Part shown: piece by piece, positions 42,877 to 64,000 of the stretch
Layout of the letters: every line of letters starts with the position of its first letter
How positions within the stretch are numbered: the first letter of the stretch is position 1
Assembly (NCBI GenBank): GCA_963810095.1
Contig: CAWEMM010000009.1
Coordinates: 224,001-288,000 of the forward strand
Reading direction: 5' to 3'
Source: an uncultured Chloroflexia bacterium
GTDB lineage: Bacteria; Chloroflexota; Anaerolineae; CG2-30-64-16
DNA length: 64,000 nucleotides
Notes under the pieces: model-generated
The model's input: the letters and a program-made list of their open reading frames with translations, nothing else
Database searches by the model: none
Told to the model about the DNA's origin: nothing
Program-made: the position numbers and the translations under genes

Positions 42877-44380
42877 TCACTTGCGATCGTCGAACACGTG
42901 CTCGGCAAGCCTTTCGCCGAGCACGTGCTCGATTTCGGCCGCCACATGCCCGGGCAGCGGGGCCGGCCGGCTGTCCTCCATCCGGGCAACGGTCCGTTCG
43001 CGCAGCCGCACATCCAGTGCCTTGCTTCCCTGTCGCACCCAGTCCGCCATCCGGTAGCGCCGGAACAAGCCCGGCTGCCACATCTCACGGAAGTGCCGCA
43101 GCGTGTGCTCTTCCGCGATGAATGAGCCGCCCGGCCCGACGGCATGAATCACGTCGAGTGCGATTTGCTCCGCATCGAGCGTGATCCCCCGGCCGAACTG
43201 GCGCGCCTGCGAGATCAGCTCGGCACAGAACACGATCATTTCCGGAGAGGTCATCAAGCCGGCTTCGAGGTAGCCGATGTCGTGCGCCAGGTGGGTGCCC
43301 GTCAGCTGTGCGACCAGGATCGAGAGCATCGCGTCGGCCGCGGCTTGCTCATCCAGCGCCAAGCTGTCAGACATCCCCGCGTTGCCCCAGATGGGCAGGC
43401 CGTAGAAACGCGCCATCTCTGCCGACGCCACCCTGGCCAGCTCGTATTCAGGCGAGCCATAGACGCTGATCGTCGATCGCATATCCATATGGTGCGCCTG
43501 GACGCCGTAGATGAACGGCGCGCCCGGCCGCGCAAGCTGCTGGATCACGAGGCTCGAAAGCACCTCCGCGTTGCCCAGCGCCAGGCCGCCGGCCAGCGTC
43601 ACGGGCGCGGTCCCGCCCATCATGGGAGCGGGAGAGTGGATCAGCGGCAGCCCGTGTTCGGCCATGAACAACAGCTTGCCGGTTGCAGTCTCCGAGTGCT
43701 TGAGCGGCGTCGTGGGCTCCGAGTAGAGCGCCAGCGTCGGGTTGAGGCCGAGTTCCGCCATCCCGCCCGCCGCGGCCGCAGCCATCCCTACGATCGCCTC
43801 GCAGTCGGCCACGTCGTCGCACACGAACACCACGGGCTTCTCCGTGTTGGCGAGCATCAGCGCGTACTGCAGCTGATAGGGGCTCGGGGTGTCAGTATCC
43901 GCCGGTATACCCATCGAGTTCAATGGGTATCCCGGCGCATCCGCCGGTATACCCATTGACATGCAGAAGTCGATCTCGGGGAGTGCGTCGACCAGGCGGA
44001 TGCACTCCCTGACGTCGGCCGTGCGGAAGGGACGCCGCGACCCGGTGCGCGGGTCGAGGTAGTTCGGACAGTCGGAACCGGGGCCGTAGTACACATTGTC
44101 GCCGCTGAGGTGCAGCCGGGGCGCGGCGTGAGCCGCGGGCGCACAGCGTTACCTCGGACGGCGCCTGCCCGAGCGCCCAGGCCACGAGTGCCGGGGGAAT
44201 GCGGACGAGGTTTTCGTCGGTCACGAGAGCGTCGCTGCGCCGGAGCAGCTCCAGCGCACCGGGGTGGTAGATCCGGACTCCTGTCCGCCGCAGGATTTCC
44301 AGCGAAGCGTTGTGAAGCGCCTCGCAGTCGCCGTGGCCGAGCATGCGCAGGCGCGGACCGGTAAAGATGGGAGTTGTCAT
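42877..44380 (-). CDS. MttB-superfamily (trimethylamine methyltransferase family) protein, non-pyrrolysine (frameshift ~44130)
   Basis: HNASLEILRRTGV, YGPGSDC, EPTTPL, MMGGTAPVTLAG.L..GNAEVLS, AGMSDS..LDEQA, HDIGYLE. Confidence 0.92.
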
Positions 44381-44384
44381 AAAA

Positions 44385-45822
44385 TCACGCGTTCCATGTG
44401 CGGCGAATGGTCTCGATCTCGTTCAAGGTGGACGCGGGGAGTTCGGGCGAGCGGGACTTGTCGAGCAGCGCGACGGTCTTCTCACGCAGGCGCTGGCCCA
44501 GGTCCTTGCCGCCCTTCCTCAGCCAATCATCCCGGCGGAGGCGGCTGTACAGCGTGGGCTGCCAAAACTCCTTGAAGTGCTGCAGGGTGTGCTCGGTGGC
44601 CAGGTAGGAACCCCCGGGGCCAATCTGGTCGACCAGATCGAGGGCGAACGCTTCCGGGCTCAGGTCCATCCCCGCGGTGAAGTGGCGCAGCCGGCCGATG
44701 ACGTCCGCGGTGAAGACGATCATCTCGGGGGATACCGCGAGCCCGGCCTCGACGTACCCGACGTCATGGACGAGGTGCTGGCCGCTGAGCAGAGCAACCA
44801 TTACGGAGGACGTCGCATCGGACGCGGCCTGCTCGTCCATGACGCAGCTGTCCGTGTAGCCGGCATAGCCGAAGTGGGGCAGGTCATAGTAGCGGGCCAT
44901 CTCGGTCACCGCGGCCCGCGCCAGCTCGAACTCGGGCGCGCCGTACACGGCGATGGTCGTCCGCATGTCCATGTGGTGCAGCCCGCACCCATACACGAAC
45001 GGCGCGCCCCGCCGCACGAGTTGGTGGATGACCAGCCCGGAGAGCAGTTCCGCGTTGCCCAGGGCCAGCGCGGCGGCCAGCGACATGGGCGCCGCGCCGC
45101 CCATCATGGGCGAGGCCTGGTGGACGATGGGCAGCCCGACCTCGGCCATATACATGAGTTTCTCGGTCGAATCCTCGCCGTGCAGCAGGGGCGTGGTGGG
45201 CTGCCCGTAGCCCACCAGGTTCGGGTTCAGGCGCAGCTCGTCCATGCCCCCGGCCGCCGCGGCTGCCATGCCCACGATTGCCTCGCACTCCGCCCGGCTG
45301 CCCAGGGTGAACGCCAGCGGCTTCGTCGTGTTTTCCAGCATGAGCGCAAACTCGTCGCAGTACGGTGCGCGCGGGTTCAGGTCCGAGGGCATCCCCATGG
45401 ACATACAGAAGTCCATTTCGGGCAGCGCGTCCACCAGCCGCACGCACGCAATCACGTCGGCCTCCGTGAATGGCCGGCGCTCGCCGCTCCGTCGGATCCA
45501 GGTAGTTCGGGCACGCCGAACCGGTGCCGAAGCTGACCTCGCGCCCCTCCAGGCGAACTGCAACCTCCGTGCTGCCCCGCTTGCAGAGCGCGATCCGGGA
45601 CGGGGGGCCCGTGAGCGCCCACTCGATCAGCGCAGGGGGGAAGCGCACCAGGCTGCCATCCGTGATGATGGCGCCGGCGTCTTTGAGCAGCCCGAGGGCG
45701 CGCGGGTGGTCGACGCGCACGCCCGTGCGGCGCAGGATCTCGAGGGATGCGTGGTGCACCGCCTCGCACTGGTCCCGTGTGAAGAAGGCGAACTGCGGTG
45801 TGGCGTGGGAACTGTGCGACAT
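44385..45822 (-). CDS. MttB-superfamily methyltransferase, non-pyrrolysine (frameshift ~45495)
   Basis: HHASLEILRRTGV, FGTGSAC, MMGGAAPMSLA, AGYTDS, HDVGYVE. Confidence 0.92.
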
Positions 45823-45899
45823 GCTGGCCTCTTGTGTCTGAATTGGGGACTGGCGACACCGCGGTTCTGTCAGAAACCCGGCGTCTCGATTCTCTTGGG

Positions 45900-47033
45900 T
45901 CAGGAATGATGATAGGCTTCGTCGGTCTCGTAGAGCTCGTGGGCCCGCGCGACGGCATCCCAGTTCAGCTCGAAGCCGAGTCCCGGGCGCAGCGCCGCCG
46001 CGGCTTCGAGCTTCCCCTGGATGGGCGTCAGGTCGGGCGAGGCGAGGATGTCTTCGGCGAGCAGTTGGTGCATGATCTGGTTGCCGTCCGCGAGGTTGGG
46101 CAGGGTCAGCGCAATCTGGTGCTGTGCCAGGTCGGTCATGCCCGTGACGGATTGGCCGTGCAGGCAAATGGCGATGCCGGCCGCTTCTGCGATTGCCGCG
46201 GCCTTCTTGAACGCAAGCAGCCCGCCGGTCTCGTGGAAAGACAGCACGACCAGGTCCGCGGCTTGCTGGCGGCAGACCTCGTAGACATCGTGCAGCGAGT
46301 AGACCGCCTGGTCGGCCGCGATCGGGATTGGCGAAGCATCGTGGACTTGCTTGAGCGCAGCCAGGCTTTGCGCGGGGGTGGGTTGCTCGACAAACTCGGG
46401 CTCGAACTGCGCCAGCCGGCGGATCATGTAGAGCGCAGTTCGCACGTCCCACGCCTCGTTGGCATCCAGCCGCAGCTTCCGGTCCCCGATGGCGCCGCGC
46501 ACCGCCCGCACGTTTGCGAGGTCCTTCTGTTCGCCCCGGCCTACTTTGATGTAGATGACCCCGTAGCCTTCCTCGGCCATGCGGTGCGCGTCCTCGGCCA
46601 GTTCGTCGGACGTGTCGCCCTGCGGAAACCCGAAGTAGTCCACGGCCGCATGGTACGCGCCGCCGAGCAGTTGGTGCAGCGGCGAGCCGGTCGCCTTGCC
46701 GATCACGTCCCACAGCGCCATCTCGACGCCCGCGAGGGTCAAGCCCGCAAAACGCGGGTTATGCGAGAAGCCGCCGAGGAAGCGGGCCTCATGCATCAAC
46801 CGCTCGACGTCGAACGGGCTGCGTCCCTCAAAGAGCGGCGCGACGCCTTGCAGCGCGGCGAGCGCGGTGTCGGCCGGCCGGCCCACGGTCGTCTCGCCGT
46901 ACCCGCTGATGCCCTCGTCCGTCTCCACCTCGATCAGCAGGTTGACCGCCCCCGTGTCCACCCGTCCGGCCCAGTGATACGGCTTCTTGAACCGGAGTGC
47001 CAGCGGTGTCGCGCGCAGCGCAATAATCTTCAT
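45900..47033 (-). CDS. Enolase superfamily (mandelate racemase/muconate lactonizing enzyme family) protein
   Basis: TDEGISGYGE, EMALWD.IGK..G.PL.QLLGG, DAN, EQP, AAD metal ligands, PGLG. Confidence 0.92.
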   Translation of the reverse strand: MKIIALRATPLALRFKKPYHWAGRVDTGAVNLLIEVETDEGISGYGETTVGRPADTALAALQGVAPLFEGRSPFDVERLMHEARFLGGFSHNPRFAGLTLAGVEMALWDVIGKATGSPLHQLLGGAYHAAVDYFGFPQGDTSDELAEDAHRMAEEGYGVIYIKVGRGEQKDLANVRAVRGAIGDRKLRLDANEAWDVRTALYMIRRLAQFEPEFVEQPTPAQSLAALKQVHDASPIPIAADQAVYSLHDVYEVCRQQAADLVVLSFHETGGLLAFKKAAAIAEAAGIAICLHGQSVTGMTDLAQHQIALTLPNLADGNQIMHQLLAEDILASPDLTPIQGKLEAAAALRPGLGFELNWDAVARAHELYETDEAYHHS

Positions 47034-47055: not shown

Positions 47056-48003
47056 CTACTTGTTGACCCGGATTCGGGGATTGAGTACGCCGTAGAGCAG
47101 GTCGGCCGCCAGGTTGGCCACGCAGAAGATGGCGACCACGACCATGCTGCAGGCCTGGATGAGGATCAGGTCGCGGCGTTGGATCGCGTAGACGAGCAGC
47201 CGGCCCAGGCCCGGATAGCCGAAAAGCTGCTCCGTGACGATCAGCCCACCGATCAGGAAGCCGATGCCCATGGCGACGATAGTGACCGTCGGCAAGAGCG
47301 AGTTGCGCAGCACGTGCTTCGTCAGCACCTGGTTCTGGGGCAGGCCCTTCAACTCAGCCGCCCGCACATAGTCCGTCTTCAGCACGTCGATGGTGCTGGC
47401 GCGCGTCATGCGCGACACGTAGCCCAGGCTGGTGAGGCTGACGGCAATCGCCGGCAGGATGAGGTAGGGCAGCGCGTCCTTGAACGAGGTGTCGGGCTGG
47501 ATCGACGAGTTTGCCGGCAGCCACTTCAGCCCGAGCGCGAACACCGCAATCAGGATGAGGCCGGTGACGAACTCGGGCAGCCCGACGAAGGCCATCGTCA
47601 CGGCCGAAATGCCCTGGTCGACGGCCTTCTCGCGTTTCAGCGCGGCGACCACGCCGAGCAGGATGCCAAGCGGGACATAGAACAGCAGGGCCACCGTCGC
47701 GAGCATGGCCGAGTTGCGCAGCCGGCTCATGATCATGGGCATCACCGCCTGCTTGCTCACCATCGACACGCCCCAGTCGCCCCGCACGAAGTGCGTCAGC
47801 CAGTCAAAGTATTGCATGTAGACGGGCCGGTTCAGCCCGAGCTCTTCGCGCAGGTTCGCGACCGCTTCCTTGGTGGCGAACTGGCCGAGCATGACCTGGG
47901 CCACGTCGCCGGGCAATAGCTGCGTCGCGGCGAAGATGACGATCGATGCCAACAGCATGGTGAGGACGATGAAGCTGATGCGCCGCAAAAGATAGGTCGT
48001 CAT
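47056..48003 (-). CDS. Peptide/nickel-type ABC transporter permease (DppB-like)
   Basis: YLLRRI, LPGDVA, DYVRAAELKGL EAA loop, EQLFGYPGLG. Confidence 0.93.
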   Translation of the reverse strand: MTTYLLRRISFIVLTMLLASIVIFAATQLLPGDVAQVMLGQFATKEAVANLREELGLNRPVYMQYFDWLTHFVRGDWGVSMVSKQAVMPMIMSRLRNSAMLATVALLFYVPLGILLGVVAALKREKAVDQGISAVTMAFVGLPEFVTGLILIAVFALGLKWLPANSSIQPDTSFKDALPYLILPAIAVSLTSLGYVSRMTRASTIDVLKTDYVRAAELKGLPQNQVLTKHVLRNSLLPTVTIVAMGIGFLIGGLIVTEQLFGYPGLGRLLVYAIQRRDLILIQACSMVVVAIFCVANLAADLLYGVLNPRIRVNK

Positions 48004-50154: not shown

Positions 50155-51033
50155 TTACCCCGTCACCCCGCCGGGCAGCAGCATGCGCCGCAGCCCGTCG
50201 CTCAGGAACCCGATGCCCACGACGAGCAGTGCGATCGCTGCCGCCGGGAAGAGCAGGACCCATGGCGCCTGGATGAAGTAGTTGCGCGCCTCGCCGACCA
50301 TCAACCCCCAGTCGGGCGAGGGCGGCTGGACGCCCAGGCCCAGGAACCCGAGCGATGCGACCAGGAAGATCGCGTAGGCAAAGCGCATCGAGGCCTCGAC
50401 GGCGAGCGGGGGCATCACGCTGGGCAGCACTTCCTTGAACATGATATAGGCCGACGTTTCGCCCCGCATCTTTGCCGCTTCGACGAACTGCCGTGTCTTC
50501 AGGTCGAGAACCACGCTGCGGACGACGCGGGCGACCATCGGAATGTACAGCACGCCGACCACGATAATGACGTTGACGCGGGAAGGTCCGAGCGTCCCCA
50601 GAATGAGGAGCGCGAGCAGCAGCGGCGGAATTGCCAGCAGCACGTCGACCAGGCGCATGGTGATCTCTTCCAGGAACGAGCCGAAATAGCCCGCAAAGAG
50701 GCCAAGCGTGAGGCCGAGAATGACGGCGATGACGGTTCCTGTGCCGGCAACGACAAAAACGTCCCGGGCGCCGCTCGAGCACGCGGCGAGTAAACATCGC
50801 GGCCGAACTGGTCGGTGCCGAATACGTGCTCGCTGGACGGCGGCTTTAGGCGCTCGGTCAGTTTTTGCTGTGTATAAGGATAGGGCGCGATCGGCGGGGC
50901 CGAACACGGCCAGGAAAAGGAAAAAGCCGACGATCGCGATCCCGATGAGCGTGGCCGGGTAGCGCCGCAGCCGGCGCCAGGTCAGCGCCAGGCGCGACGG
51001 CCGGCGCACGGGTACGTCCAGTTGAGCTTCCAT
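50155..51033 (-). CDS. Peptide ABC permease (DppC-like; local frameshifts ~50790-50895)
   Basis: FVEAAKMRGE, LGFLGLGVQPPSPDWG. The FGTDQFGRDV segment is displaced into another frame. Confidence 0.88.
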   Translation of the reverse strand: MEAQLDVPVRRPSRLALTWRRLRRYPATLIGIAIVGFFLFLAVFGPADRALSLYTAKTDRAPKAAVQRARIRHRPVRPRCLLAACSSGARDVFVVAGTGTVIAVILGLTLGLFAGYFGSFLEEITMRLVDVLLAIPPLLLALLILGTLGPSRVNVIIVVGVLYIPMVARVVRSVVLDLKTRQFVEAAKMRGETSAYIMFKEVLPSVMPPLAVEASMRFAYAIFLVASLGFLGLGVQPPSPDWGLMVGEARNYFIQAPWVLLFPAAAIALLVVGIGFLSDGLRRMLLPGGVTG

Positions 51034-51056
51034 TTGGAGGAGACCTCCGGTTTCTG

Positions 51057-51094
51057 AGAGGGGCAGCCGGGCCATAAGCTCCCGGCCGCCCCTC
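51057..51094. other. Intergenic stem-loop after the substrate-binding protein gene
   Basis: GAGGGGCAGCCGGG-loop-CCCGGCCGCCCCTC. Typical position for differential mRNA stabilisation. Confidence 0.5.
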
Positions 51095-51105
51095 GAACGG
51101 AGAGG

Positions 51106-52810
51106 TTACTTCTCGAAGTACACGGTCCGCAGGTCAAGTGCGGTGCCCAGGTAGCTCGTTGGCTTGAGCCCCTTCAGTTTGACGTTTGCGCCCCACAGGT
51201 TGCTGGCGAAGAACGGGACGATGATCGGGCCGCGGTCGATGAAGATCTGCTGGATCTGCTTGTACAGCTCCGCGCGCTTCGTCCGGTCCAGCTCGCACGG
51301 CGGCCTTGGCCGACAGGTCGTCCAGTTCCTTGTCGCACCAGTGGCTCTCGTTCCACTTGGCGGTGCAGACGTAGGCGAGGTCCAGGTAGGGCTGCGGGTA
51401 GGCGCGCGAGCCCCAGTCGGTGATCGCCAGGTCCGCTTCCAGCCAGAGGTTGTCGGCGCCGTAGTACACGTCGGACGGCACCAACTGGATCTCGGCGTTG
51501 ATGCCCGCCTCGGCCCACTGTTCCTTCAGGATCGTCGCGATGGCCGGGACCGGCGAGATCTGCTGCGCGGTCAGGGTGATCTTCAGCCCGTCACCGTAAC
51601 CGGCTTCGGTCAGCAACTGCTTGGCCTTCGCCACATCGCGGGTCGGGTCTGGGCGCGTCAAGGTAGAAGTCGCCGTAGCCGGGGCCGAACGGCGTGTTGT
51701 GGCCGACGACGCCCAGGCCTTCGAACGCTGCCGCCAGGATGGCTGCGTTGTCCGTTGCGGCCTTGAACGCCTGGCGCACCTTCACGTCGTCGAACGGCTT
51801 CTTGTCGCTGCGCATGCGCAGGACGAAGGCGTGTTGGACGGCTTTTCGAGCACCTGGATGTTCTGGTCCTCCTTAAGCGTCTTCACGAACTCGGTCGGCA
51901 GGTAGAGCAGGTAGTCCACCTGCCCGCCGCGCAGCGCTTCGACCTGGGCCGACGGCTCGGCCATGAAGATGAACTCCATCCCGTCGAGGTAGGGCAGCTG
52001 GTTGCCTTCCGCATCCTTCATCCAGTAGTTCGGGTTCTTCTTGAAGGTCAGCCGGTCTTCGGGCAGGTACTTGTCGATCATGAAGGGCCCCGTGCCGATG
52101 AACTCGGTCTTCGGGTCCTTGATGCCGCTCCAGACGATCAGCGCATGGTAGTCGCCCAGGTCGAGCAGGAAGTCGGGGTTCGTCTTCTTGAGCTTGAACA
52201 CGACCGTGTTGTCGTCGGGCGTGGAGATGTCTGCGATGTTCGAGTACAGGGCCACCGTCGCCGCGCCCACCTTCTCGTCGCGCAGCCGGTCGAACGTGGT
52301 CTTCACGTCCTTTGAAGTGAGCGTCTCCCCGTTGTGGAACTTGACGCCCTGGCGCAGCGTGAAGGTCCAGGTCAGGCCGTCGTCGCTCGTCGTCCACTTT
52401 TCGGCCAGGCTGCGGCTTGCATCCGGCGCGTTCTCCTCGCCCGTGTAGACCAGGAAGTCGCCCCACTGCCGGCCGATTTCGTCGTCTGAAACGGAGCTCA
52501 GGAACGCGGGGTCCAGGTTGGTCGGTGCAAAGTACGCGTGCTTCAGCGTGCCGCCATACTTCCCGCCGGTTGCCGCGGGAGCTGCCGTCGGTTCAGGGGC
52601 CTTGGTCGGTTCGGCGGCCGGTGCGGCTGTCGGCTCGGGCGCTTTAGTCGGCTCCACCGCCGGCGCCTGGGTTGGTTGGGCCGGCGCAGTGGTTGGCTGC
52701 GCAGGGGCTGCCGTCGGCTGGGGCGCAGCCGGCGCGCTGCACGCGGCGAGCAGCACGCTCAGGATGACGATGACGGCAAGCACTATGCCGCCACTCCGTG
52801 ACGCCTTCAT
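51106..52810 (-). CDS. Family 5 ABC substrate-binding lipoprotein (frameshifts ~51835, ~51660, ~51297)
   Basis: Lipobox LLAAC, PT/A linker, LAEKW..S.DGLTWTFTLRQGVKFHNG, GTGPF, PFDDVKVRQA, WNESHW. Confidence 0.9.
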
Positions 52811-54296: not shown

Positions 54297-54411
54297 GGGC
54301 CTGACGCTTCCTTCTGACACGAGGCCGTACTGTACCATCTTTTCCGGTTTGCGAAAACCCCTGTTGGAAAGCAATTATGCCGGGCGCTGTGCGCTGGCCG
54401 GGCTTTCGAGC

Positions 54412-55866
54412 TCAGCCGCGGGCGCCGGCGACGATCTCGTCCAGCCGCTGCTGAACGTCCGCGGGCAGCGGCTCGGCCGTGTGCGTCGCGAGGATCTTGA
54501 GCGCCTTCTCCTGGGCGCGCTGGCGCAGCGTCTTGCCGCCCGCCCGGCTCCAGTCTTCGTACGGCCGGCGGTCGAAGAGCTTCGGGTACCAGTCCGACTT
54601 GTAGTGCTTCCGGGTGTGGTCCGCGCCCATGAAGTCGCCAAAGGGCCCGATTTCGTCGATGATGTCCAGCCCGAGCGTCTCGTCGTTGATCTCGAGGCCC
54701 TTCATAAACTGTTTCGTGTACCCGATCATCTCGTCGCACATGACAAGCTGCTCGATCGAGTTGCACATCCCGCCTTCGAGGTAACCCACGTCGTGTGCCA
54801 TCTGCGCGCCGGCCAGGGTTTCCAGGATGATGGAGAAAGCCGCCTCGGCCGCGGCCTGTTCGTCCGGGATTTTGGAATCGCTGCACCCGGCAAGCCCGAA
54901 GATGGGCAGCCCGTAGCGATGTGCCAGCTCCACCAGCATCACGCGGTTGTTCGGATCGCTGTACGAATCCACCGTGGTCCGCATGTCGAGCATGTCGTTC
55001 ACGCCGCCGGTCAGGATGATAGGCGTGCCCTCGCGCTTGATCTGCGCGATCACCAGTCCGGCCAGTTCCCCCGCGTTCGCCATCGCAATCGCGCCCGCGG
55101 CCGTCACAGGCCCGCTCACCCCGCGCAAGACGACAGGGGTGTAGGTGGTGGGCAGCCCCTTGCCGGCCATGAAGATGAGCTTCTGCAGCGCCTCCGCGTT
55201 GTGGCGCAGCGCGTGCGTCACGTTGATGTACAGGGCACAGATCGGGTTGCGCCGCAGCGCCTCTTCGCCGCCGGCCACTGCCTCGACCATCCGGATCACG
55301 TCCACGCAGCCGGGAAACTCGGTCGTGACGAACAGGATCGGCTTGGTCGTGTGCGTAAGCATGGCGCGCATCTGGTGCCGGTCCGACACGGCCTGGTCGA
55401 CGTCGGATGCGATGCAGAACGACATAACGAAGTCGATGTTGGGGAGCGCGTCGCAGACCAGCGCAGCTTCCTCGATGTCGCGCAACGTCCCAACTCGCCG
55501 CACACCGTCGCGCACGTCGATCACATTGGGGCAATCGGAGCCCGGCCCGTAGAAGACGTTGTTGCGTTCGAGCGGCATGACGCGGCGGCCGTTGCGGTCG
55601 CAGATGACCGTTCGTTTCGGCGCCGTGTTCAGCGCCCATTCCACCAGCCCCGGCGGGATGCGCACCCGGGCGCCCCGTCCCTCGTCGACCGCCTCGGCCG
55701 TGATGCCCTTGCGCCGCAGAAGTTCCACTGCCTCGGGCTCGTACAGGACGACACCCGTGCGGTCGAGGATCTCCAGGCTCGCGTGGTGTAGGCGCTCGGT
55801 CTGGTCGTCGGAAAGCTTCCGGAAACGCGGCGTGTCGTAGGATGTGTAGTTGCTTTGTAGGGTCAT
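54412..55866 (-). CDS. MttB-superfamily methyltransferase, non-pyrrolysine
   Basis: HHASLEILDRTGV, YGPGSDC, GPVTAAG, AGCSDSKIPDEQA, HDVGYLE. Intact ORF. Confidence 0.93.
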   Translation of the reverse strand: MTLQSNYTSYDTPRFRKLSDDQTERLHHASLEILDRTGVVLYEPEAVELLRRKGITAEAVDEGRGARVRIPPGLVEWALNTAPKRTVICDRNGRRVMPLERNNVFYGPGSDCPNVIDVRDGVRRVGTLRDIEEAALVCDALPNIDFVMSFCIASDVDQAVSDRHQMRAMLTHTTKPILFVTTEFPGCVDVIRMVEAVAGGEEALRRNPICALYINVTHALRHNAEALQKLIFMAGKGLPTTYTPVVLRGVSGPVTAAGAIAMANAGELAGLVIAQIKREGTPIILTGGVNDMLDMRTTVDSYSDPNNRVMLVELAHRYGLPIFGLAGCSDSKIPDEQAAAEAAFSIILETLAGAQMAHDVGYLEGGMCNSIEQLVMCDEMIGYTKQFMKGLEINDETLGLDIIDEIGPFGDFMGADHTRKHYKSDWYPKLFDRRPYEDWSRAGGKTLRQRAQEKALKILATHTAEPLPADVQQRLDEIVAGARG

Positions 55867-55881: not shown

Positions 55882-56787
55882 TTAACTCGACGCTGATGAC
55901 GCAAATGCGGCATGATTGCCCGTAGCGTGTTCGGCACGCCGAACGGCAAGCGCCAGCGCTTCCTCGACCAGCACCGGCAGCACCGCGAGCCGGTACTCGC
56001 GGGATGCGCGCAGGACGCTGGAACGCGGGTCGGCATCGCACAGAGCCAGCCGTGCGGCCTCCGCCAACAGCTCAGGCCGCGCTCCGCGGCCGGCCAGGAA
56101 TGCTTCGGCGTCGTGGGCCCGGATGGGGCAAGGACCGACCGGGCCCATCGCGATGGCCGCCGAAACAATCAGGCCGCCGTCCAGCACCACTTTGACCGCG
56201 CAATTCAGGGTCGGCAGCACGAGCGCCGGCCGTCGCCCTGCCCGGCGCCACGCCGTCCCCCACGCGCCCGGGGGGATCGGGAAGCGAATGTGCGTGACGA
56301 TCTCCCGGGTCGAGTCGATGGTCGACCGGCCCGGCCCTGCGTAGAGCTCGGCCACGGGCCGCCAGCGCTCGCGTTTCATATCCAGCACACGCACTTCGGC
56401 ATCCAGGGCGGTGGCAATGATCGCGCCGTCTGCCGCCGGCATGGCTTGCACCAGGTTTCCGACCCAAGTGGCCGACGTCTGGATTGCGAGTGCGCCGACC
56501 GACGCGGCCGCGTCGACGAGTGCATGGAAGTGGGACGCGAGGTACGGGTGCTCGCGCAGCGCGACGAACGGCACGGCCGCGCCAATCGTCGCCCACCCGT
56601 CGCCGACTTCGATCGCGCCGAGTTCGGGGATGCGGGTGATATCCACCAGGCAGGCCGGCGTATGCTTGCCCTGCTCGATGTCGAGCAGGATGTCCGTGCC
56701 CCCCGCGACGATACGGGCATGACCGGCACACGCATGGAGCATTTCCAGGGCCTGCTGCGGCGTGGTGGGGAAGAGATAGTCCGTCAT
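55882..56787 (-). CDS. Xanthine dehydrogenase family FAD-binding subunit
   Basis: VAGGTDI, AASVG...IQTSATWVGNL....PAAD, RASREYR. Confidence 0.92.
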   Translation of the reverse strand: MTDYLFPTTPQQALEMLHACAGHARIVAGGTDILLDIEQGKHTPACLVDITRIPELGAIEVGDGWATIGAAVPFVALREHPYLASHFHALVDAAASVGALAIQTSATWVGNLVQAMPAADGAIIATALDAEVRVLDMKRERWRPVAELYAGPGRSTIDSTREIVTHIRFPIPPGAWGTAWRRAGRRPALVLPTLNCAVKVVLDGGLIVSAAIAMGPVGPCPIRAHDAEAFLAGRGARPELLAEAARLALCDADPRSSVLRASREYRLAVLPVLVEEALALAVRRAEHATGNHAAFASSASS

Positions 56788-59536
56788 CGTTCCTCCCCGC
56801 GAATCGCTGCCAGGATGCGCTCGGGCGTGGCGGGGATCGTGCGCACCCGCTGGCCAATGGCCCGCGAGATCGCATTGACGATCGCGGGCGTGGCGGGCAG
56901 CATGGCCGCCTCCCCCAGCCCCTTCACGCCGAACGGGCCGAAACGGCTGGGCACTTCGACAAGGACGACCTCGATCTCGGGCATCGACTTAACCGTCGGG
57001 AGATAGTAGTCGGCAAACCCGGTGGTATGGCCGGGCAGCACCTCTTCCATCAACGCCGCGCCCAATCCCATCACGACCGCACCCTCGATCTGCCCTTCCG
57101 CGTCCGGCCGGTTGACCGCACGGCCTACGTCGTGCGCGGCGACCATTCTCAGCACTTGGACCTCGCCGGTACGCATGTTTACTTCGACCTCGGCCAGGTG
57201 CGCGCCGGTGACGAAGAGTGGGGCATACTCGGGACTGGCCTCGGGCGGGAAGCGAGGCGATAGGTCGAAGATGCCGAGGGTGCGCCGCGATTTGCCGAGC
57301 CGGTCGAACTCGCGGGCGACCTCTGCCAGCGGCAGGTGCAGCCCGTCGGGTGATACCACGGCCCGCCCCGCCAGCGAGAGCGAGGCGGGCGCCCGGTCGA
57401 GGATCTCGGCTGCGACGCCCAGCACTTCGTCCAGCAGGTTTGCGGCAGCTCGGACCACTGCGCCGCCGACAAAATAGGTCGCGCGCGACGCGCCCTGGAT
57501 GCCGCTGTCGGGGGCCCGTGCCGTGTCCGAGTTGACCAGGATGACTTCATCTCGGCTCACGCCCAGGGCCTCGGCGGCCATTTGCACCATCGTGGTGTTC
57601 GTGCCCTGCCCGTAATCGGCTGCGGTGCAGTAGATGACGAACCGGCCGTCGCTTGCCAGCTCCGCGTGCGCCTCAATCCGCAGCGATCCGGACTTGCCGA
57701 AGCGATACCACATCCCGGCAAGCCCCACGCCGCGGGAGAAGCCCGGTTTGTCTTGGGAAGACCCGGCCCGCACGCCGGCGAGCATCGCCTCGTAATGCGG
57801 CCGGAGCGCCTCCAGCACCTCGCGGAACCCGAGCGACTCTGCCACCGGATAGCCGAGGAACGAGTTTTCGCCGTCATGCAGCCGGTTCTGCAGCCGGAAC
57901 TCGAGCGGGTCCGCCCCAAGCCGCTGGCACAGCTCGTCCAGCGCGCACTCGGTGGCAAAGCACGCCTGCGCGGTCCCGAACCCGCGGTACTGGCCCGCTT
58001 TCGGACCGTTGGTGTAGACGGTCTGCGCCCGGGCGTCGACTGCGGCCCAGCGGTACGGGCCGCCGCTGGCGGTCACGGCATAGTTCGGAATGTATTGCCC
58101 CGAGGCATCATACGCGCCCGTGTTGGCTTCGATTCGTGTCTGGATGCCCGTCAGCCGCCCATCGCGGGTGGCGCCGATGCGATTGCGGACCAGGTAGGGG
58201 TGGCGCTTGGGCGAGGCATGAAATGACTCCTGCCGTGAGTAGACGAGCATCACGGGCCGCTGCGTCGCATAGGTCATCAGCGCGGTCGCGATGAACGGCC
58301 ACGGGTCCTGCTTGCCCCCGAACGACCCACCGGTCGGTGGAATCACGACGCGTACCTGCTCGCGCGGCAGCGCCAGGCTTGCCGAGATGTAGGCTTGCTG
58401 GTAGTACGCCTCGTGCGCGCCGCCGGCCACCGTCAGGCGGCCCTCGTCGTCGTAGTAGCCCAGCAGCGACTCACGTTCCAGCGCGCCGTGCTCGAGAAAC
58501 GCGGTGCGGTACTCGGTCTCGACGACCACGGCGGACCGCTCGAGCGCGGTTTCAAGATCGCCGTGCTTGACCTCATAGGAACTGAGAATGTTCCCGCGGC
58601 CGGCAATATACGGTGCGCCCGAGACCTGCGCGGCTTCGACGTCGAAGGTGTGTGGCAGCATCTGGTAGTCCACCTTGGCGGCCGCCGCGCCTGCCCGCGC
58701 CGAGCCGACGGTTTCGGCCACCACCAGCGCGACCGGCGCACCGATCATTCGGACGGTCGCGCCCAACCGGCGCCAAGCACCGGCTCTTCCTGGCTGTAAT
58801 CCCCCAGGCCGTTTTCGCCGGGAATGTCCGCTGCGGTGAGCACCGCCACGACGCCGGGAACTGCCTGCGCTTCGCTTAGGTCGATCGAGAGTACCCGGGC
58901 GTGGTGGTGGGGCGACCGCACGACCGCGCCGTGCAGCATGCCGTCCATCCGCATGTCCTCGACATAGCGGGTGGCGCCGGTTACCTTGCCCTGAGAGTCC
59001 GTGCGTAGGTTGCTGCCGCCGATCGCACCGGGGGCATTGGGCTTGGGGGCAAGCGTCGGAGCTTCCTGTGATCGCAGCCGCCGCGCCGCAAGTTCGACTG
59101 CCTGCACGATCTTCCGGTAACCGGTACACCGGCACAGGTTGCCTTCGAGCGCGTCGACGATTTCCCCCCGGCTCGGCTCCTGCGTCCGGTCGAGCAGCCC
59201 CTTGGCCGCCATCAACATGCCGGGCGTGCAGAAGCCGCACTGGACCGCGCCGGCCTCGACGAACGCGGTTTGCAGCGGATGCAGGCCGTCCGGACCGGCG
59301 AGCCCTTCCACCGTCTGCACCTGCCGGCCGGCAACCTTGCCGACGGGCGTCAGGCAGGAGCGGACGGGCCGCCCGTCGAGCAGCACCGTGCACGCACCGC
59401 ACTCCCCTTCGTGGTCACACCCTTGCTTCGTTCCGGTCAGGCCCAGGTCCGCCCGGAGCACATCAAGCAGCGGCCGCGCCGGGTCCGTATCGACCGCGAC
59501 GAGGATGCGATTCAAGGAAAACACAATGTGGGACAA
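56784..59536 (-). CDS. Xanthine dehydrogenase family fused 2Fe-2S + molybdopterin-binding subunit (frameshift ~58768)
   Basis: GTKQGCDHEGECGACTV, QCGFCTPG, NLCRCTGY. KVTG...YVED, GGSFGGK, YRGFG, GQG, GQIEG, KGLGE. Confidence 0.92.
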
Positions 59537-59632: not shown

Positions 59633-60746
59633 CTATGCCGGAACGGTTCTCAGGTCTGTGAGGACAGTTTCGAGGGTTGAGATGAGCCGGGCGTTCTGGG
59701 TTGCATCTCCGACGGTAATGCGGAGATACTCCGGCAGATCGTAGCCCGTGCAGGGGCGGACGATGACCCCGCGCTTAAGCAGTTCCTCGTACACTCGTTT
59801 CGCCTCCGGACCCAACCGGGCAAGCAGGAAGTTGGTCTGGCTGCGCACGTAGCCGATGCCCAGCCGGTCGAACTCGCGATAGAGGAACTCGCGGCCTGCG
59901 GCGTTCACGCTCACCGTGCGCTTGAGAAATGCGCTGTCCTTCAACGCCGCTTCTCCCGCCACCTGGGCCAGCAGGTTGACCGGGAAGGACTCGGTGCAGG
60001 CGCGCATCGGGGCAAGCAACTCGGCCGAGGCGAGGGCGTAGCCTAAGCGGATGCCCGCGATGCCGTATGCCTTCGAGAACGTGCGGAGGATGCAGACGTT
60101 CTTGCGGCCTTCCAGAACGTACGGCAGCGTGTCGGGGTATTCGGGATCATCTACAAAGTCGTAGTACGCCTCGTCAAAGACCACGATCGCCGTGTCGGGC
60201 ACGCGCGCCATGAAGCGGTCGACCTCGGCCGCGGTCACGATGCTGCTCGTCGGGTTGTTCGGGTTACAGACGAAGATCAGCCGGGTGCGCGGGGTGATCG
60301 CGCCGGCCATCGCACGCAGGTCGAACCGGAGATCGGGTGTGAGCGCGTGTCTTCACCAGCCGGGCGCGCATCACCGCGGCGCTGATGTCGTAAACCGGGA
60401 ACGACGAGCAGCTGGTCAGCACCTCGTCGCCGTCGTTCAGGTAGGACACACACAGCTCGCGGATCACGCCGTCGGCCCCGTTGCCCACCCGGACCATCTC
60501 GGGTTCCACCCCATGATACGCTCCGAGCGCGTGCCGAAGCCGGTACGCCTGTGCGTCCGGGTACATGTTGAGCGAGGGCAGCGCCTCCATCAGCGCCTGC
60601 ACGACGACGGGCGACGCGCCGATAGGGTTCTCGTTTGATGCCAGCTTGATGATATCCGTCAGCCCATACTCCCGCTGCACTTCCTCGATCGGCTTGCCGG
60701 GGACGTAAGGGCGGATCGCACTCAGGCCACGTTGCGGCTTAACCAT
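59633..60746 (-). CDS. hisC: Histidinol-phosphate/aromatic aminotransferase (frameshift ~60345)
   Basis: YVPGKP, KLASNENP, CNPNNPT, DEAY, RTFSKAYGIAGIRLGY, LRITVG. Confidence 0.88.
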
Positions 60747-60750
60747 GGTT

Positions 60751-62892
60751 TCACCTTGCCTCTTGTTGCACGCAGATGATGCGGACGTCGCCGGCCACAG
60801 CGCCGGCGGGAGAAGCAAACACCGGGTTCAGATCGATCTCGGCGAGCTCGGGATAGGCGAAAGGCAGCTCGGACACGCGCACGACCATGTCGGCCAGCGC
60901 GTGCACGTCTACCCCCTGCTGGCCCCGCGCACCCGCCAGGATGCGATACCCGCGTATCGACCGGATCATCGCGTGTGCTTCGGCATGGTTCACCGGCGCG
61001 ACGCGCAGCGCGACGTCTGCAAGCACTTCGGTATAGATGCCGCCCAGGCCGAACGCTACGACCGGCCCAAACTGCCGATCGCGGGACAGGCCGATCAGGA
61101 CCTCGTGGCCCCCGCGGATCAGTGGGTAGACGACGACGCCGGCGAACGACGCGCTTTCTGCCCGACCCCGGATGGTCCTGAACGCCTCGAGTGCCGCGGC
61201 TTCGTCCCGGATGCCCACGATCACGCCCCCTCGCTCCGACTTGTGCAGGATATCGGGCGAAACGACCTTCATCACCGCGGGGAAACCGACGCCGTAACAC
61301 GCGGCCGCGGCTTCTTCTTCATTCTCGGCAAACATGAAGACTGGGGTGGGGATGCCGTTACCGCCCAGCCACATCATCGCGTCCGGTTCGAGGATGGGCT
61401 CCCGCGGCAGCGCGGGGCGCTCCGACACGGCGACCGGCGCATAGGCATCATACGGGTTCGCGTCGGGGCCGCATTTTGGTAGGCGCGCCATATTCGCAAG
61501 CGCCGTCACAGCACGTTCGGGCGTTGGGAAGTTGAGGATGCCGTTCTCGTGCAGGTACGCGACGGCGCCGGCCGTGACGGCCTCGGGGAGGAAACTCGTC
61601 AAGATGGGCTTGCCCGTCGTGCGGGCCGCATCCACGATGCCGCGGGCGATGGACAGCGACTCCAGGTAGGGCGGCGCGATGTTAATCGCCACGGCGGCAT
61701 CGAACAGGGCGCCCTCAGAAACCAGGTTGCTTGAAGAAACCTGGTTTCTCTCGAACAAGGCCGTCAGCGTCTCGCGATACCCCTTTTCCGTCCCTTCCAC
61801 GGTCAGGTCGATCGGGTTCTTGAGCGCGGCGTGGGCGGGCAAGAACGCGGCGAGCTTTGCCTTGACCGCGGTGTCCGGCTCCGCCACGATGAGCCCCACC
61901 GCCTCGGCCTTGTCCGCGGCCAGGATACTTGGCCCGCCCGAGTTCGTCACCACTGCGACGCGGCCTCCCGTCAACGCGGGCAGACCGGTCAGCGCGCGGC
62001 ACAGGTCGAACATCTCCTCGGCTGACGACACCCGCAGCGCTCCGCACTGGCGGAAAGCCGCGTCGTAAACCGCGTCGCTGCCCGCCAGAGAGCCCGTGTG
62101 GGAGAGCGTCGCACGTTGCCCCGACTCCCCGCGGCCCGCCTTGATCACGATGACCGGCTTTTGCGCCCGGCATCGTGCGACCGCGTGCATGAATGCCCGC
62201 CCATCGCTCACGGTCTCGATGTAGACGCACACCACGTGCGTTTCGGGATCGTCCGCCAGGTAGTTCAGCAGGTCGACTTCGTTGACGTCGGCGCGGTTGC
62301 CATAGCTTACGAACTTCGAGATGCCGAGCCCGTCCCGCTTCGCCCATCCGAGCAGCACGCCCGCCAGCGCGCCGCTCTGCGAGATAATCGCGACGTGGCC
62401 GGGCGGGGGCAAGGTCTCCAGCGTGGGGCAGAGGCGGTGCGCGGTGTTGATGATGCCTGCGCAGTTCGGCCCGACTATCCGGAGGCCATTGGCCGCGGCC
62501 ACGGCCTTGATTTCTGCCTCGCCGGCCTGGTTGCCCATCTCCCCGAAACCCGACGAGATGATGACGGCCGCGCTAACCCCTGCCTGCCCGCATTCCTCGA
62601 GAACCGCGGCCACCGTGCCGGCGGGCGAGGCAATCACGGCAAGGTCGACGGGCAATCCGGCGGCTGTGAGCGAAGAGCAGCCCGGAACGCCAAGCGCGCC
62701 CTGGCCCTTCGGGTTGATTGCGACCACGTCGCGATATCCGCCTGCCAGCATCTGCCGCAGCAGCTCGTACCCCAGCTTGCCCTCAGCGACCGAGCCGACC
62801 AGCGCGACCGCCCGCGGGGTGAAGAAGGGTTCGAGACTGGAGACTTCTGGCCTCTCGTCGGGCCCGAAGCGCTGCCCTGGGGACGCGCTCAT
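60751..62892 (-). CDS. ADP-forming acyl-CoA synthetase (acetate--CoA ligase, fused alpha/beta)
   Basis: GPNCAG, SQSGAL, SHTGSLAG phospho-His, NSGG, NPIDL, HKSERGGV, DLNPV. Confidence 0.93.
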   Translation of the reverse strand: MSASPGQRFGPDERPEVSSLEPFFTPRAVALVGSVAEGKLGYELLRQMLAGGYRDVVAINPKGQGALGVPGCSSLTAAGLPVDLAVIASPAGTVAAVLEECGQAGVSAAVIISSGFGEMGNQAGEAEIKAVAAANGLRIVGPNCAGIINTAHRLCPTLETLPPPGHVAIISQSGALAGVLLGWAKRDGLGISKFVSYGNRADVNEVDLLNYLADDPETHVVCVYIETVSDGRAFMHAVARCRAQKPVIVIKAGRGESGQRATLSHTGSLAGSDAVYDAAFRQCGALRVSSAEEMFDLCRALTGLPALTGGRVAVVTNSGGPSILAADKAEAVGLIVAEPDTAVKAKLAAFLPAHAALKNPIDLTVEGTEKGYRETLTALFERNQVSSSNLVSEGALFDAAVAINIAPPYLESLSIARGIVDAARTTGKPILTSFLPEAVTAGAVAYLHENGILNFPTPERAVTALANMARLPKCGPDANPYDAYAPVAVSERPALPREPILEPDAMMWLGGNGIPTPVFMFAENEEEAAAACYGVGFPAVMKVVSPDILHKSERGGVIVGIRDEAAALEAFRTIRGRAESASFAGVVVYPLIRGGHEVLIGLSRDRQFGPVVAFGLGGIYTEVLADVALRVAPVNHAEAHAMIRSIRGYRILAGARGQQGVDVHALADMVVRVSELPFAYPELAEIDLNPVFASPAGAVAGDVRIICVQQEAR

Positions 62893-63485
62893 TGCACTAC
62901 CATGGCCGCGGCTGAGTTGAACGCAAACAGGTTGCGCGCGACGCCCCGCTTCCACCGGCCTCCGATGACTTCCGCCACCGCCGCCGGCGCGATCACCCGA
63001 CCGAGGCCGGTCTGCGCGGCTGCGACGCCCAGCGTGTAGACATTGTCTGGCACGGGCTGGCCCTCGAAAAGCGGCAGCACCTCGGGATCGATCACGACGG
63101 GCCACGCGCCCGCCGCCTCTACCTGCTTCACGACGGCCTCGAGTTCGGGATAGGGCGCCTTGCCCAGCATCACTGCGGTGGGCTGCCACACGGCGGCAAA
63201 CAGGACGAAGTCGCCGCCGGGCTTCACGAAACGAACCGCCTTGAGCGCCTCTGACACCTCGGTCGCCACCACGAGGTCGGCGCCCTGCTCGGGAATCGCC
63301 GGCCCGGGTGTCGCCCGGCCGATCCTCAACTGCGCCTTGACAAATCCGCCGCGCTGCGCCATGCCCTTGGTCGGGTAGAAGTTGACGGGCAGCCCCGCTC
63401 GGAAGGCGGTTTCGGCGATGATCTCGCCGATGGTCAACACACCCTGCCCGCCCACGCCGACCAGGTAGATATCATACGTGTTCAT
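62889..63485 (-). CDS. iorB: Indolepyruvate ferredoxin oxidoreductase beta subunit
   Basis: GVGGQGVL, GMAQRGGFV, EALKAVRFVKPGG, NLFAF. Confidence 0.88.
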   Translation of the reverse strand: MNTYDIYLVGVGGQGVLTIGEIIAETAFRAGLPVNFYPTKGMAQRGGFVKAQLRIGRATPGPAIPEQGADLVVATEVSEALKAVRFVKPGGDFVLFAAVWQPTAVMLGKAPYPELEAVVKQVEAAGAWPVVIDPEVLPLFEGQPVPDNVYTLGVAAAQTGLGRVIAPAAVAEVIGGRWKRGVARNLFAFNSAAAMVVQ

Positions 63486-64000
63486 GCGACTGCCTCCGCG
63501 GGGGCCACGAATTCGATCGCGTCCCGGTTGCACACCGCGCCGCACAGGTTGCAGCCGTAGCACACCTCGGGGTCGATAATCACCGTGCCGTCCCCAAGGC
63601 TGAGCGCAGGACAGCCGGTCTGGATGATGCACAGCTTGCAGGCGTTGCAGTTCTCCGCGATCACCCGGACCTCGCCGGCTCGCTTCCCGCGGCGCATTGC
63701 CGGCATTGCGCACTCCTGCCGGGCTAGCACCACCTTCACGCCGGGTCGTTTGATCGCGTTGAGGATCGCGGCGGTCGTCTGATCCTGGTCGAACGGGTCG
63801 ACCTCGGCGAAGAAGTCGACCCCGATGGCCTCGACGATCTTCGCAATGTCCACCGTCCGCGCCGCTCCCGCCACGCCCGGCTGGCGCGCCGCCTCTGTGC
63901 CCGGATTGGGCTGCATCCCCGTCATGCTCGTCCAGCCGTTGTCGAGGATGATGACAGTGATGGGCGCCTGGTGCTGCACCGCATTCACCAGCCCCGCCAT
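63482..64000 (-). CDS. iorA: Indolepyruvate ferredoxin oxidoreductase alpha subunit (C-terminal part; runs off the right edge)
   Basis: LVNAV, ILDN.WTSMTG.QP.PG TPP-binding region, two ferredoxin motifs CNACKLC...CPA and CYGCNLC...C. Confidence 0.9.
   Translation of the reverse strand: MAGLVNAVQHQAPITVIILDNGWTSMTGMQPNPGTEAARQPGVAGAARTVDIAKIVEAIGVDFFAEVDPFDQDQTTAAILNAIKRPGVKVVLARQECAMPAMRRGKRAGEVRVIAENCNACKLCIIQTGCPALSLGDGTVIIDPEVCYGCNLCGAVCNRDAIEFVAPAEAVA

Follow-up and report, generated by a model that had tools for sequence, protein, structure and literature searches.

Several methyltransferases of the MttB family that dispense with pyrrolysine (Pyl) have been matched to their substrates, namely MtgB (glycine betaine), MtpB (proline betaine), MtcB (carnitine), MtyB (gamma-butyrobetaine) and MthB (phosphocholine). 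According to the accessible parts of two reports, characterized members take one methyl group from a quaternary amine (PMC12155760; PMC13080624), an acidic one in the former report, and Eubacterium limosum possesses 42 MttB paralogues (PMC12155760). In the likewise partly available account of Ruegeria pomeroyi MtgBCD, an MttB-type enzyme acts on glycine betaine in an oxygen-respiring aerobic marine bacterium, and the MtgBCD systems of such bacteria employ a shared cobalamin-binding protein and a bidirectional methyltransferase tied to methionine synthesis (PMC12478193). Here we describe a gene cluster built around MttB-family genes in a window of 64,000 nucleotides, C9:224001-288000 (contig CAWEMM010000009.1) of the genome coded G000, where C numbers denote contigs and L and G codes the loci and genomes of relatives. 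The assembly comprises 6.13 Mb in 16 contigs with 65% G+C and is, by estimate, about 88.5% complete; its host is an uncultured Anaerolineales (Chloroflexota) bacterium, most likely able to respire oxygen. We tentatively favour the reading that this is one conserved cluster which would import and degrade a histidine-derived quaternary amine of the hercynine type, its apparent frameshifts being assembly errors and its genes intact.

Genes were called as open reading frames (ORFs) guided by G+C content at third codon positions (GC3) and assigned to families with Pfam and NCBIfam profiles. All cluster genes in the window lie on the minus strand. The cluster stops at position 42877, beyond which Ku and LigD are encoded, and annotation of 20 kb of right flank (L001) shows that it extends 12.7 kb past the window edge, so that the window holds the 3' two-thirds of 23 co-oriented genes spanning about 33.8 kb. 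Neighbouring genes are separated by at most about 100 nt or overlap by 4 nt inside the window, the gaps past its right edge are at most about 140 nt, and a single IclR gene heads the whole series; a fourth MttB gene (MttB4; PF06253, 197.1 bits) lies beyond it in divergent orientation. The initial annotation had listed, from right to left, iorA, iorB, an ADP-forming acyl-CoA synthetase (ACS), a HisC-like aminotransferase, a two-gene molybdenum enzyme of the xanthine dehydrogenase (XDH) family, MttB, MmgE/PrpD, a peptide-type ATP-binding cassette (ABC) importer, an enolase-superfamily enzyme and two further MttB genes; every one of these families was recovered in that order by both profile collections. 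This account of the gene content stands, but it had missed the frame-split genes, the extension to the right and the end at 42877. No RNA family reached the Rfam gathering threshold in the window or L001, and a scan for promoters and terminators, which returned fewer sites than shuffled sequence, was uninformative on operon structure.

Like the described non-Pyl systems, the cluster encodes full-length PF06253 proteins that lack a Pyl codon, in a genome that also holds genes for corrinoid proteins, a RamA-type activase and pterin methyltransferases. As had been proposed from the sequence, these MttB proteins are of the non-Pyl type: no in-frame stop occurs in the matches, and their scores against the Pyl-type profile TIGR02369 (375.2, 285.5, 269.7 and 197.3) fall short of the cut-off of 525. 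Against all solved members of the family the E-values reach only 1e-45 to 1e-56, and unlike in the known systems, the partner genes stand outside the cluster, which is instead linked to XDH-type molybdenum enzymes and to histidine catabolic genes. The accessible parts of two reports on the MttB family (PMC12155760, PMC13080624) and the literature matches listed contain no mention of such a link.

MttB1 (54412..55866; PF06253, 327.9 bits over positions 26-493 of 500), an intact protein of 484 amino acids, represents one orthogroup and is the anchor of the conserved neighbourhood. A search restricted to one genome per species yielded 78 related loci, 60 with an MttB1 orthologue of at least 59% identity and 18 with distant MttBs; the orthologues range from 59 to 89% identity, and those at 60-89% come from metagenome-assembled genomes of Anaerolineales, Anaerolineae or Chloroflexota. 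Counted over flanks of at most 10 kb on each side, many contigs being shorter, the three-module enzyme designated XDH_c accompanies MttB1 in 40 of the 60 loci and any XDH module in 46; in 33, MttB1 is immediately preceded on its own strand by XDH_c or the FAD subunit of that enzyme. The FAD subunit of XDH_c was counted in 23 loci, the ABC importer in 14, PrpD in 10, XDH_a/b in seven, ior, ACS and hisC in six each, ATCase (aspartate carbamoyltransferase) and IclR in four each, the enolase-type gene and MttB2/3 in three each and the amidohydrolase in one, while eight loci have no other cluster gene. The expectation that MttB genes would be conserved together with ior, the ADP-forming ACS and hisC thus held in that these genes are linked in several architectures, but only in six loci, the constant partner being the XDH-type enzyme.

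Conservation of the neighbourhood, which had been suggested as a check, was borne out across genera. The whole cluster is kept in G001, and the order from IclR to MttB1 in G021, a member of a different genus; G012 has a rearranged yet clustered set (XDH_a/b, MttB1, enolase, two MttB, XDH_c, iorAB and ACS), and in G014 the block from the amidohydrolase to MttB1 is followed, after about 9 kb of other genes, by a PrpD-ABC-MttB2 block. The G014 insert (G014:C21; L012 9140-18067) carries two octopine/nopaline-dehydrogenase-like genes, a cupin-HTH regulator, an MttB, an ornithine cyclodeaminase/mu-crystallin gene, a 4Fe-4S protein and a serine-dehydratase-alpha-like gene; cyclodeaminase and dehydratase-like genes are also encountered close to MttB1 in L032, L040, L043 and L068.

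The substrate is suggested by the genes that relatives place beside MttB1. In nine of the 60 loci, as against none of the 18 with distant MttBs, the immediate neighbours of the MttB1 orthologue include hutU and/or genes of the HAL family. At least three architectures occur: hutC-like regulator, HAL-like lyase, hutU and MttB1 (L039, L042, L047); hutU, MttB1 and hutH (L063, L064) or hutU and MttB1 (L081); and, in L059, the order ABC, PrpD, enolase-type, MttB, MttB, MttB1, corrinoid protein, MttB and hutH. L043 and L078 have a hutC-like regulator and a HAL-like lyase beside MttB1, with no hutU match. The urocanases in question are HutU (917 bits against a cut-off of 375, compared with 637 against 930 for thiourocanate hydratase). 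The L059 hutH scores 699 against 524, while the HAL-like protein of L042 narrowly passes one cut-off (527 against 524) and misses that of the hutH equivalog (499 against 539). MttB1 at the hut-flanked loci is 76-79% identical to that of the window (59% in L081). Since hut genes stand beside MttB1 orthologues and the cluster itself encodes a HisC-type paralogue, a histidine-derived methylated compound, of the hercynine type, appears to be the best candidate substrate on comparative genomic grounds. The histidine betaines had been among the substrate classes named in the initial annotation, and this class now gains independent support. In a literature search that had little reach into subscription journals, MttB was not found together with hercynine, nor, among the matches listed, was corrinoid or MtgB found together with hercynine, histidine betaine or trimethylhistidine.

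The predicted binding pocket of MttB1 is in keeping with a substrate other than glycine betaine. The accessible parts of the MtgB report name Y97, R312, H348 and F356 as glycine-betaine-binding residues of the Desulfitobacterium hafniense enzyme (PMC13080624); in an alignment to 9YCE and 2QNE, whose chain numbering was mapped to the published one by an offset of 2 deduced from residue identities, MttB1 has S110, F323, H358 and G366 at these positions. Thus, unlike in MtgB, three of the four are replaced and only the histidine is kept. The same pattern of S, F or W, H and G recurs in MttB2 (44385..45831; PF06253, 216 bits for the C-terminal part, with the N-terminal part in another frame) and MttB3 (42877..44380; 219.6 bits for the C-terminal part, with the N-terminal part at 44123-44380 in another frame), while MttB4 differs and has no close relative in the set of MttBs compared. 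This pattern would be in line with MttB1-3 acting on related substrates of larger size. The tandem duplicates MttB2 and MttB3 share 58% identity and correspond to a single gene in L059 and L037. In view of this duplication and of the single-methyl chemistry of characterized members, the proposal that three paralogues remove up to three methyl groups in turn gained no support. More broadly, the family of the host shows a great expansion of MttB, with as many as 39 matches in a genome and many on single contigs.

That the window contains neither a corrinoid protein nor a methyltetrahydrofolate transferase was noted at the outset and extends to C9:224001-308000, where none of 22 B12-binding and none of four pterin-binding matches of the genome fall. 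The suggestion that corrinoid, MtgA or RamA genes lie past the right edge did not hold for the 20 kb to the right; they are found either on different contigs or at a distance of over 100 kb. The genome encodes four small corrinoid proteins, one RACo/RamA activase, two pterin methyltransferases and a homocysteine methyltransferase; the corrinoid protein most similar to those beside MttB1 orthologues is encoded at about 106.9 kb of C9. Genes for the homocysteine methyltransferase, a corrinoid protein, the RACo/RamA-type activase and a pterin methyltransferase stand together at C6:56-72 kb, an arrangement that resembles the shared MtgC/MtgD module of aerobic marine bacteria as far as the accessible text describes it (PMC12478193); unlike in MtgBCD, its service to MttB1-4 is putative. 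The second pterin methyltransferase adjoins another MttB on C12, and among relatives a corrinoid-protein gene adjoins the MttB1 orthologue in three of the 60 loci (L058, L059, L065). A second MttB locus of the same genome, C12:492000-512000 (L113), comprises a family-5 binding protein, an MttB, a permease, a double ATPase, a Cys/Met pyridoxal phosphate (PLP) enzyme, an Asp/Glu-type racemase, an aminotransferase, a further MttB and a split pterin methyltransferase; its design logic is like that of the cluster studied here, but it has its own methyltetrahydrofolate transferase.

If the cluster does serve a histidine betaine, uptake would proceed through the Opp/Dpp-type ABC system, and MttB1 together with the MttB2/3 pair would carry out corrinoid-dependent N-demethylation, passing methyl groups to a corrinoid protein and on to tetrahydrofolate or homocysteine by means of the RamA-type activase and the pterin and homocysteine methyltransferases whose genes lie at other sites of the genome. 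In G000, the histidine-type amino acid so formed would be transaminated by the HisC paralogue, then oxidatively decarboxylated by the IorAB paralogue, and the CoA ester cleaved by the ADP-forming ACS with gain of ATP; in some relatives MttB1 would instead feed the classical HutH/HutU route.

The succession of an aminotransferase, indolepyruvate:ferredoxin oxidoreductase (IOR) and an ADP-forming ACS is the aromatic amino-acid fermentation route of Thermococcales, and the cluster has the same three families, adjacent and co-oriented. Unlike that route, the trio scores under equivalog cut-offs, consists of second copies in the genome and is embedded among molybdenum hydroxylases and MttB genes in an oxidase-bearing bacterium. 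The HisC-like class-II aminotransferase (59633..60818) matches TIGR01141 with about 212-213.9 and about 98.4-100 bits in the two frames of a broken gene (cut-off 276.55); a housekeeping hisC lies at C12:627444 (311.8 bits), so that the cluster gene is a second HisC-type copy. Of the iorA-like gene the window includes the 3' part (63482..64000, TPP_enzyme_C and Fer4); the gene extends to L001:1433, with a frame change at a window-equivalent position of about 64852. Its two frames reach 330.6 and 195.1 bits (TIGR03336 cut-off 650.9), and the iorB-like subunit (62889..~63470, start approximate, POR domain) scores 118.9 against 205.8 for TIGR03334. Neither thus qualifies as the IorAB equivalog, although in domain content they agree with the family; C6:1059334 carries a second iorA. 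The ACS (60751..~62870, start approximate), with fused alpha and beta parts, combines CoA-binding, succinyl-CoA-ligase-like and ATP-grasp_5 domains in one protein (CoA_binding_2, Succ_CoA_lig, Ligase_CoA_2, ATP-grasp_5) and so belongs to the ADP-forming family, but stays below the equivalogs (422.7 against 567 for TIGR02717; 447 against 1200 and 435 against 1300 for the substrate-specific ones). No literature was found that joins imidazole-4-acetate with acyl-CoA synthetase and Pyrococcus furiosus, and use of imidazole-acetyl-CoA by an archaeal ACS is not taken as evidence here.

XDH-family enzymes hydroxylate N-heteroaromatic rings next to nitrogen. The cluster encodes three complete enzymes of this type, each with Mo-binding, 2x[2Fe-2S] and FAD modules, and all subunits score under the curated cut-offs, the best being 534 against 784 for pucD (Mo_b). 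XDH_c lies in the window as a FAD-binding subunit (55882..56787; FAD_binding_5 and CO_deh_flav_C) and a fused 2x[2Fe-2S] and molybdopterin subunit (56784..59536; Fer2, Fer2_2, Ald_Xan_dh_C, MoCoBD_1 and MoCoBD_2 over two frames), and its nearest solved structure is the Desulfovibrio aldehyde oxidoreductase 1DGJ (E 9e-70). In its domain order of Fer2, Fer2_2, hammerhead, MoCoBD_1 and MoCoBD_2, together with a separate FAD_binding_5 subunit, it is like the fused FeS-Mo enzymes of the E. coli XdhD/YgfM type (TIGR03311) and the Desulfovibrio enzyme; unlike the XdhD/YgfM type, it reaches only 264 and 351 bits in two pieces against 830. To the right of the window, on the same strand and after the rest of iorA, are a hydantoinase/dihydropyrimidinase-like amidohydrolase, XDH_b (Mo_b, FeS_b and FAD_b), XDH_a (Mo_a and a FAD-FeS fusion) and an ATCase, with the IclR gene. 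Behind IclR, a block made up of XDH_a, XDH_b, the amidohydrolase and the ATCase is kept together in the source genome, G014, G021, L056 and others, and in G012 the hydantoinase-like and ATCase genes are adjacent though detached from the XDH genes, with a dihydroorotase-like gene elsewhere.

Ring degradation would draw on this block. An imidazole-acetate-type product may be hydroxylated twice by XDH-type enzymes, dispensing with oxygenases, to a hydantoin (5-carboxymethylhydantoin), which the hydantoinase-like amidohydrolase would open to an N-carbamoyl amino acid (N-carbamoyl-aspartate) for the ATCase to take. No oxygenase family was found among the profile matches of the cluster. The pathway had been put forward as anaerobic, but the genome has three full-length COX1 (haem-copper oxidase) genes; the chemistry of the cluster is merely oxygen-independent, and a strictly anaerobic setting is unsupported. 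In ergothioneine utilization, a derivative of histidine betaine is likewise taken through a urocanate-type compound and a hydantoin to a cyclic amidohydrolase (ErtD, hydantoin-5-propionate amidohydrolase) and an N-carbamoyl amino acid; trimethylamine is freed there by a lyase, and no MttB is known to take part. The cluster differs in that its amidohydrolase reaches 207 bits against 600 for ErtD and in that the urocanases of relatives are HutU and not thiourocanate hydratase.

The amidohydrolase scores 360.2 against 393.25 for dihydropyrimidinase/D-hydantoinase (TIGR02033), 206.9 against 600 for ErtD and 201 against 452 for dihydroorotase, and its best solved match is the D-hydantoinase 1NFG (E 1e-78); the ATCase, at 366.5 bits against 236.95 for TIGR00670, is a member of its family. 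We considered whether the two are plain PyrC and PyrB and rejected this for the pair, as the amidohydrolase resembles hydantoinases more closely than dihydroorotases and a separate dihydroorotase-like gene, similar to one beside pyrB in G024, lies at C12:639989. A carbamate kinase is encoded at C6:1272980 beside other carbamoyltransferases. In that region (C6:1266000-1278000; L108), a YgeY-like hydrolase shares one frame with an ATCase-like protein that narrowly misses the cut-off at 234.6 bits; a YgeW/OTC-like carbamoyltransferase and the carbamate kinase come next. The region looks like a catabolic set yielding carbamoyl phosphate, and the carbamoyl product of the cluster might enter it as well.

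The importer genes comprise an OppB/DppB-like permease (47056..48003; BPD_transp_1 and BPD_transp_1_N in the C-terminal part of ORF 47056-49248; 75-89% identity to relatives), a fused double OppD/F-like ATPase (48000..~50100; two ABC_tran and two oligo_HPY domains, with about 75 N-terminal amino acids in another frame), an OppC/DppC-like permease (50155..51075; BPD_transp_1 and OppC_N) and a family-5 solute-binding protein of the peptide/opine/nickel type (51134..52810; SBP_bac_5 in two ORFs, with several indels). The nearest solved relatives of the binding protein are generic dipeptide, opine, haem or nickel binders and indicate no ligand. The MmgE/PrpD-family protein (52896..54374; MmgE_PrpD_N and MmgE_PrpD_C) has iminodisuccinate epimerase as its best solved relative (E 6e-22); an assignment as the 2-methylcitrate dehydratase PrpD was rejected (equivalog score 32.7 against 950), the match being to the family-level domains.

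The enolase-superfamily (MR/MLE) enzyme (45900..47033; MR_MLE_C and MR_MLE_N) had been assigned an epimerization step. Two-lysine racemases and epimerases such as the L-Ala-D/L-Glu epimerase 1JPM have three metal ligands, a lysine ending strand 2 and a lysine ending strand 6. In an alignment to 1JPM the cluster enzyme keeps the D/E/D ligands and the strand-2 lysine (the second of KxK) but has S and E at the strand-6 lysine positions, so that epimerization is unsupported by this comparison. The closest structure, 2PGW from Sinorhizobium meliloti pSymA (E 5e-106, about 49% identity), whose entry title assigns no function and on whose function no literature was found, also lacks the strand-6 lysine. 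Its gene is, as in the cluster, co-oriented with an MttB-family gene and a betaine-type ABC system, but this neighbourhood belongs to a different phylum and has no XDH, ior or hisC genes. It runs, in one orientation (L126 2541-13122), through LysR, MttB-family, GlxA regulator, aminopeptidase-P-family, isochorismatase-family, betaine-type ABC and 2PGW genes, and offers a cultivable model for the MttB/enolase-type pairing.

At least seven genes, hisC, the XDH_c molybdopterin subunit, the binding protein, the ATPase, MttB2, MttB3 and iorA, are split over two frames in the assembly. Their orthologues in G014 and G021 are uninterrupted single frames, examples being XDH_c (1010 and 1062 amino acids), hisC (377 and 416) and, in G014, the binding protein (552) and MttB2 (479). 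When window positions 44001-64000 were compared with Logan short-read contigs from four runs at a likeness of at least 90% (90-100%), the contigs showed 13 single-base indels, the 12 listed including those at 44125, 45492, 49882, 51650/51654, 51829, 58764 and 60346/60348. They are one base short at 44125 (MttB3), 45492 (MttB2), 49882 (ATPase, whose frame change was placed at 49879-49889), 58764 (XDH_c) and 60346/60348 (hisC); the indels at 51650/51654 and 51829 fall in the binding protein. Six of the seven predicted frameshift sites have a contig indel, and the seventh (51266-51297) is almost uncovered. Since single-base indels in contigs of related populations coincide with six of these seven positions, we conclude that the splits arose in assembly and that the natural genes are intact. 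Homopolymer context did not explain the sites.

A number of points weigh against the favoured reading. The substrate is deduced from neighbouring genes, and these are present in a minority of related, non-independent loci (hut in nine and ior, ACS and hisC in six of the 60); in the source genome itself, both hut gene sets lie away from the cluster, on C6. Full demethylation to histidine goes beyond the chemistry of characterized MttB members as the accessible sources describe it. XDH_c, the most constant partner, has no obvious role in the breakdown of a histidine betaine and is nearest to an aldehyde oxidoreductase, and PrpD, the enolase-type enzyme and MttB4 have no explained place in the pathway. 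The amidohydrolase falls under every curated cut-off, and the cluster ATCase may be the housekeeping pyrB: it is the only gene of the genome above the ATCase cut-off, as is the cluster ATCase of G014 and G021 among high-scoring genes, and the single ATCase of G024 sits with a dihydroorotase and PyrD. Finally, each indel is supported by a single contig with a depth of 2-4, support that carries weight because the indel positions coincide with the predicted frameshift sites. On balance, the initial annotation is confirmed and extended in what it observed and in part supported in how it interpreted it.

It is rather unlikely, but to be taken seriously, that the locus is a catabolic island in which neighbouring modules act on different substrates and no single pathway exists: MttB, ABC, enolase and PrpD would handle assorted betaines, hisC, ior and ACS ordinary aromatic amino acids, and XDH, hydantoinase and ATCase the turnover of purines, pyrimidines or other N-heterocycles together with pyrimidine synthesis. 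The many combinations and orders of modules around MttB1, most of them found with it in a minority of the 60 loci, would be expected in that case, as would the MttB expansion, the housekeeping-like ATCase and the fact that other MttB loci of the source genome carry ABC systems and PLP enzymes of their own. Unrelated functions would not, however, lead one to expect that modules re-associate after rearrangement, as they do in G012, L035, L056, L066, L067 and L077, nor do they sit easily with the closely spaced, co-oriented series of 23 genes behind one IclR gene, or with XDH_c directly upstream of MttB1 on the same strand in more than half of the loci.

The strictest form of the hercynine proposal appears improbable to us, namely a complete oxygenase-free pathway in which MttB paralogues strip all N-methyl groups, molybdenum hydroxylases break the imidazole ring via 5-carboxymethylhydantoin and N-carbamoyl-aspartate, and the ATCase runs in reverse. 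If true, ATP would be gained from both acyl-CoA and carbamoyl phosphate, and these would be the first MttB-superfamily members acting on histidine betaine, perhaps also on the tertiary and secondary amine products; full demethylation by paralogues would be new for the family.

We regard it as quite improbable that the substrate belongs to the N-methylated heteroaromatic carboxylates, of which trigonelline (N-methylnicotinate) is an example, or to the methylated purines or pyrimidines; MttB1 would then remove a ring N-methyl group before XDH enzymes hydroxylate the carbon beside nitrogen and the amidohydrolase opens the ring. XDH_c and MttB1 being the tightest conserved pair is what such a route would predict, and three complete XDH-type enzymes with a cyclic amidohydrolase fit N-heterocycle degradation. 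Yet it leaves unexplained the aminotransferase, IorAB and ACS as well as hutU and hutH beside MttB1 orthologues, the XDH subunits are all under the curated cut-offs for xanthine dehydrogenase and aldehyde oxidoreductase, and among the literature matches listed none joins MttB with trigonelline, homarine, stachydrine, hypaphorine or ergothioneine. Very improbable is a different betaine of an aromatic amino acid, for instance tryptophan betaine (hypaphorine), which had been put forward as an alternative. It would be demethylated, transaminated and converted by IOR and ACS to an arylacetate whose ring the molybdenum enzymes hydroxylate, and the transaminase/IOR/ADP-ACS trio is indeed present, as is Phe or Trp in place of the carboxylate-binding Arg and small residues in place of the MtgB aromatic cage, which would make for a roomier pocket; orthologues are flanked by hut and not by tryptophan genes, however, and ATCase and hydantoinase-type genes would point to an N-C-N ring. 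That the frameshifts are real and the cluster is decaying into pseudogenes is barely credible, since the splitting of at least seven genes, and the split matches that the same-genus genomes G001 and G002 also yield, have to be set against the one-base differences in contigs 90-100% alike, split genes on other contigs as well (a pterin methyltransferase on C12, a B12-binding protein on C16, a carbamoyltransferase on C8 and iorA on C6), a GC3 of gene fragments that stays gene-like at 0.80-0.88, and the fact that the source genome, G001 and G002 are all assemblies of few, long contigs.

Elsewhere in the window, the Ku/LigD region (37835-41530, minus strand) has LigD split into a phosphoesterase ORF (39840-40679) and a ligase and primase-polymerase ORF (37835-39913) that overlap by 74 nt, probably through another assembly indel. 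The plus strand carries a polyketide- or polyunsaturated fatty acid-synthase-like set at 18775-30396, with an acyl-CoA dehydrogenase, a KS-AT protein (ketosynthase-acyltransferase, 1137 amino acids), a KS-like/ACP protein (acyl carrier protein, 1146), a KR protein (ketoreductase, 896) and a 4'-phosphopantetheinyl transferase; its large ORFs overlap by hundreds of bases, perhaps owing to more assembly indels. This set is followed, at 30537-34052, by export genes for MacB/FtsX, an ABC ATPase and an HlyD-type protein.

Among histidine betaines, hercynine and ergothioneine are widespread in microbes and fungi, and their known breakdown releases trimethylamine. Corrinoid-dependent demethylation of a histidine betaine would constitute a trimethylamine-free sink and a new substrate class for the MttB superfamily; most of the very many paralogues of this superfamily await substrate assignment. 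The cluster most likely joins corrinoid demethylases and molybdenum enzymes in the uptake and breakdown of a methylated histidine-like compound, a combination for which we found no earlier description. Irrespective of the substrate, the pairing of MttB with an XDH-type molybdenum enzyme across 40 of 60 species-level loci provides a testable lead for both enzyme families, and it also bears on how abundant, uncultured Chloroflexota of sediments metabolize carbon and nitrogen.

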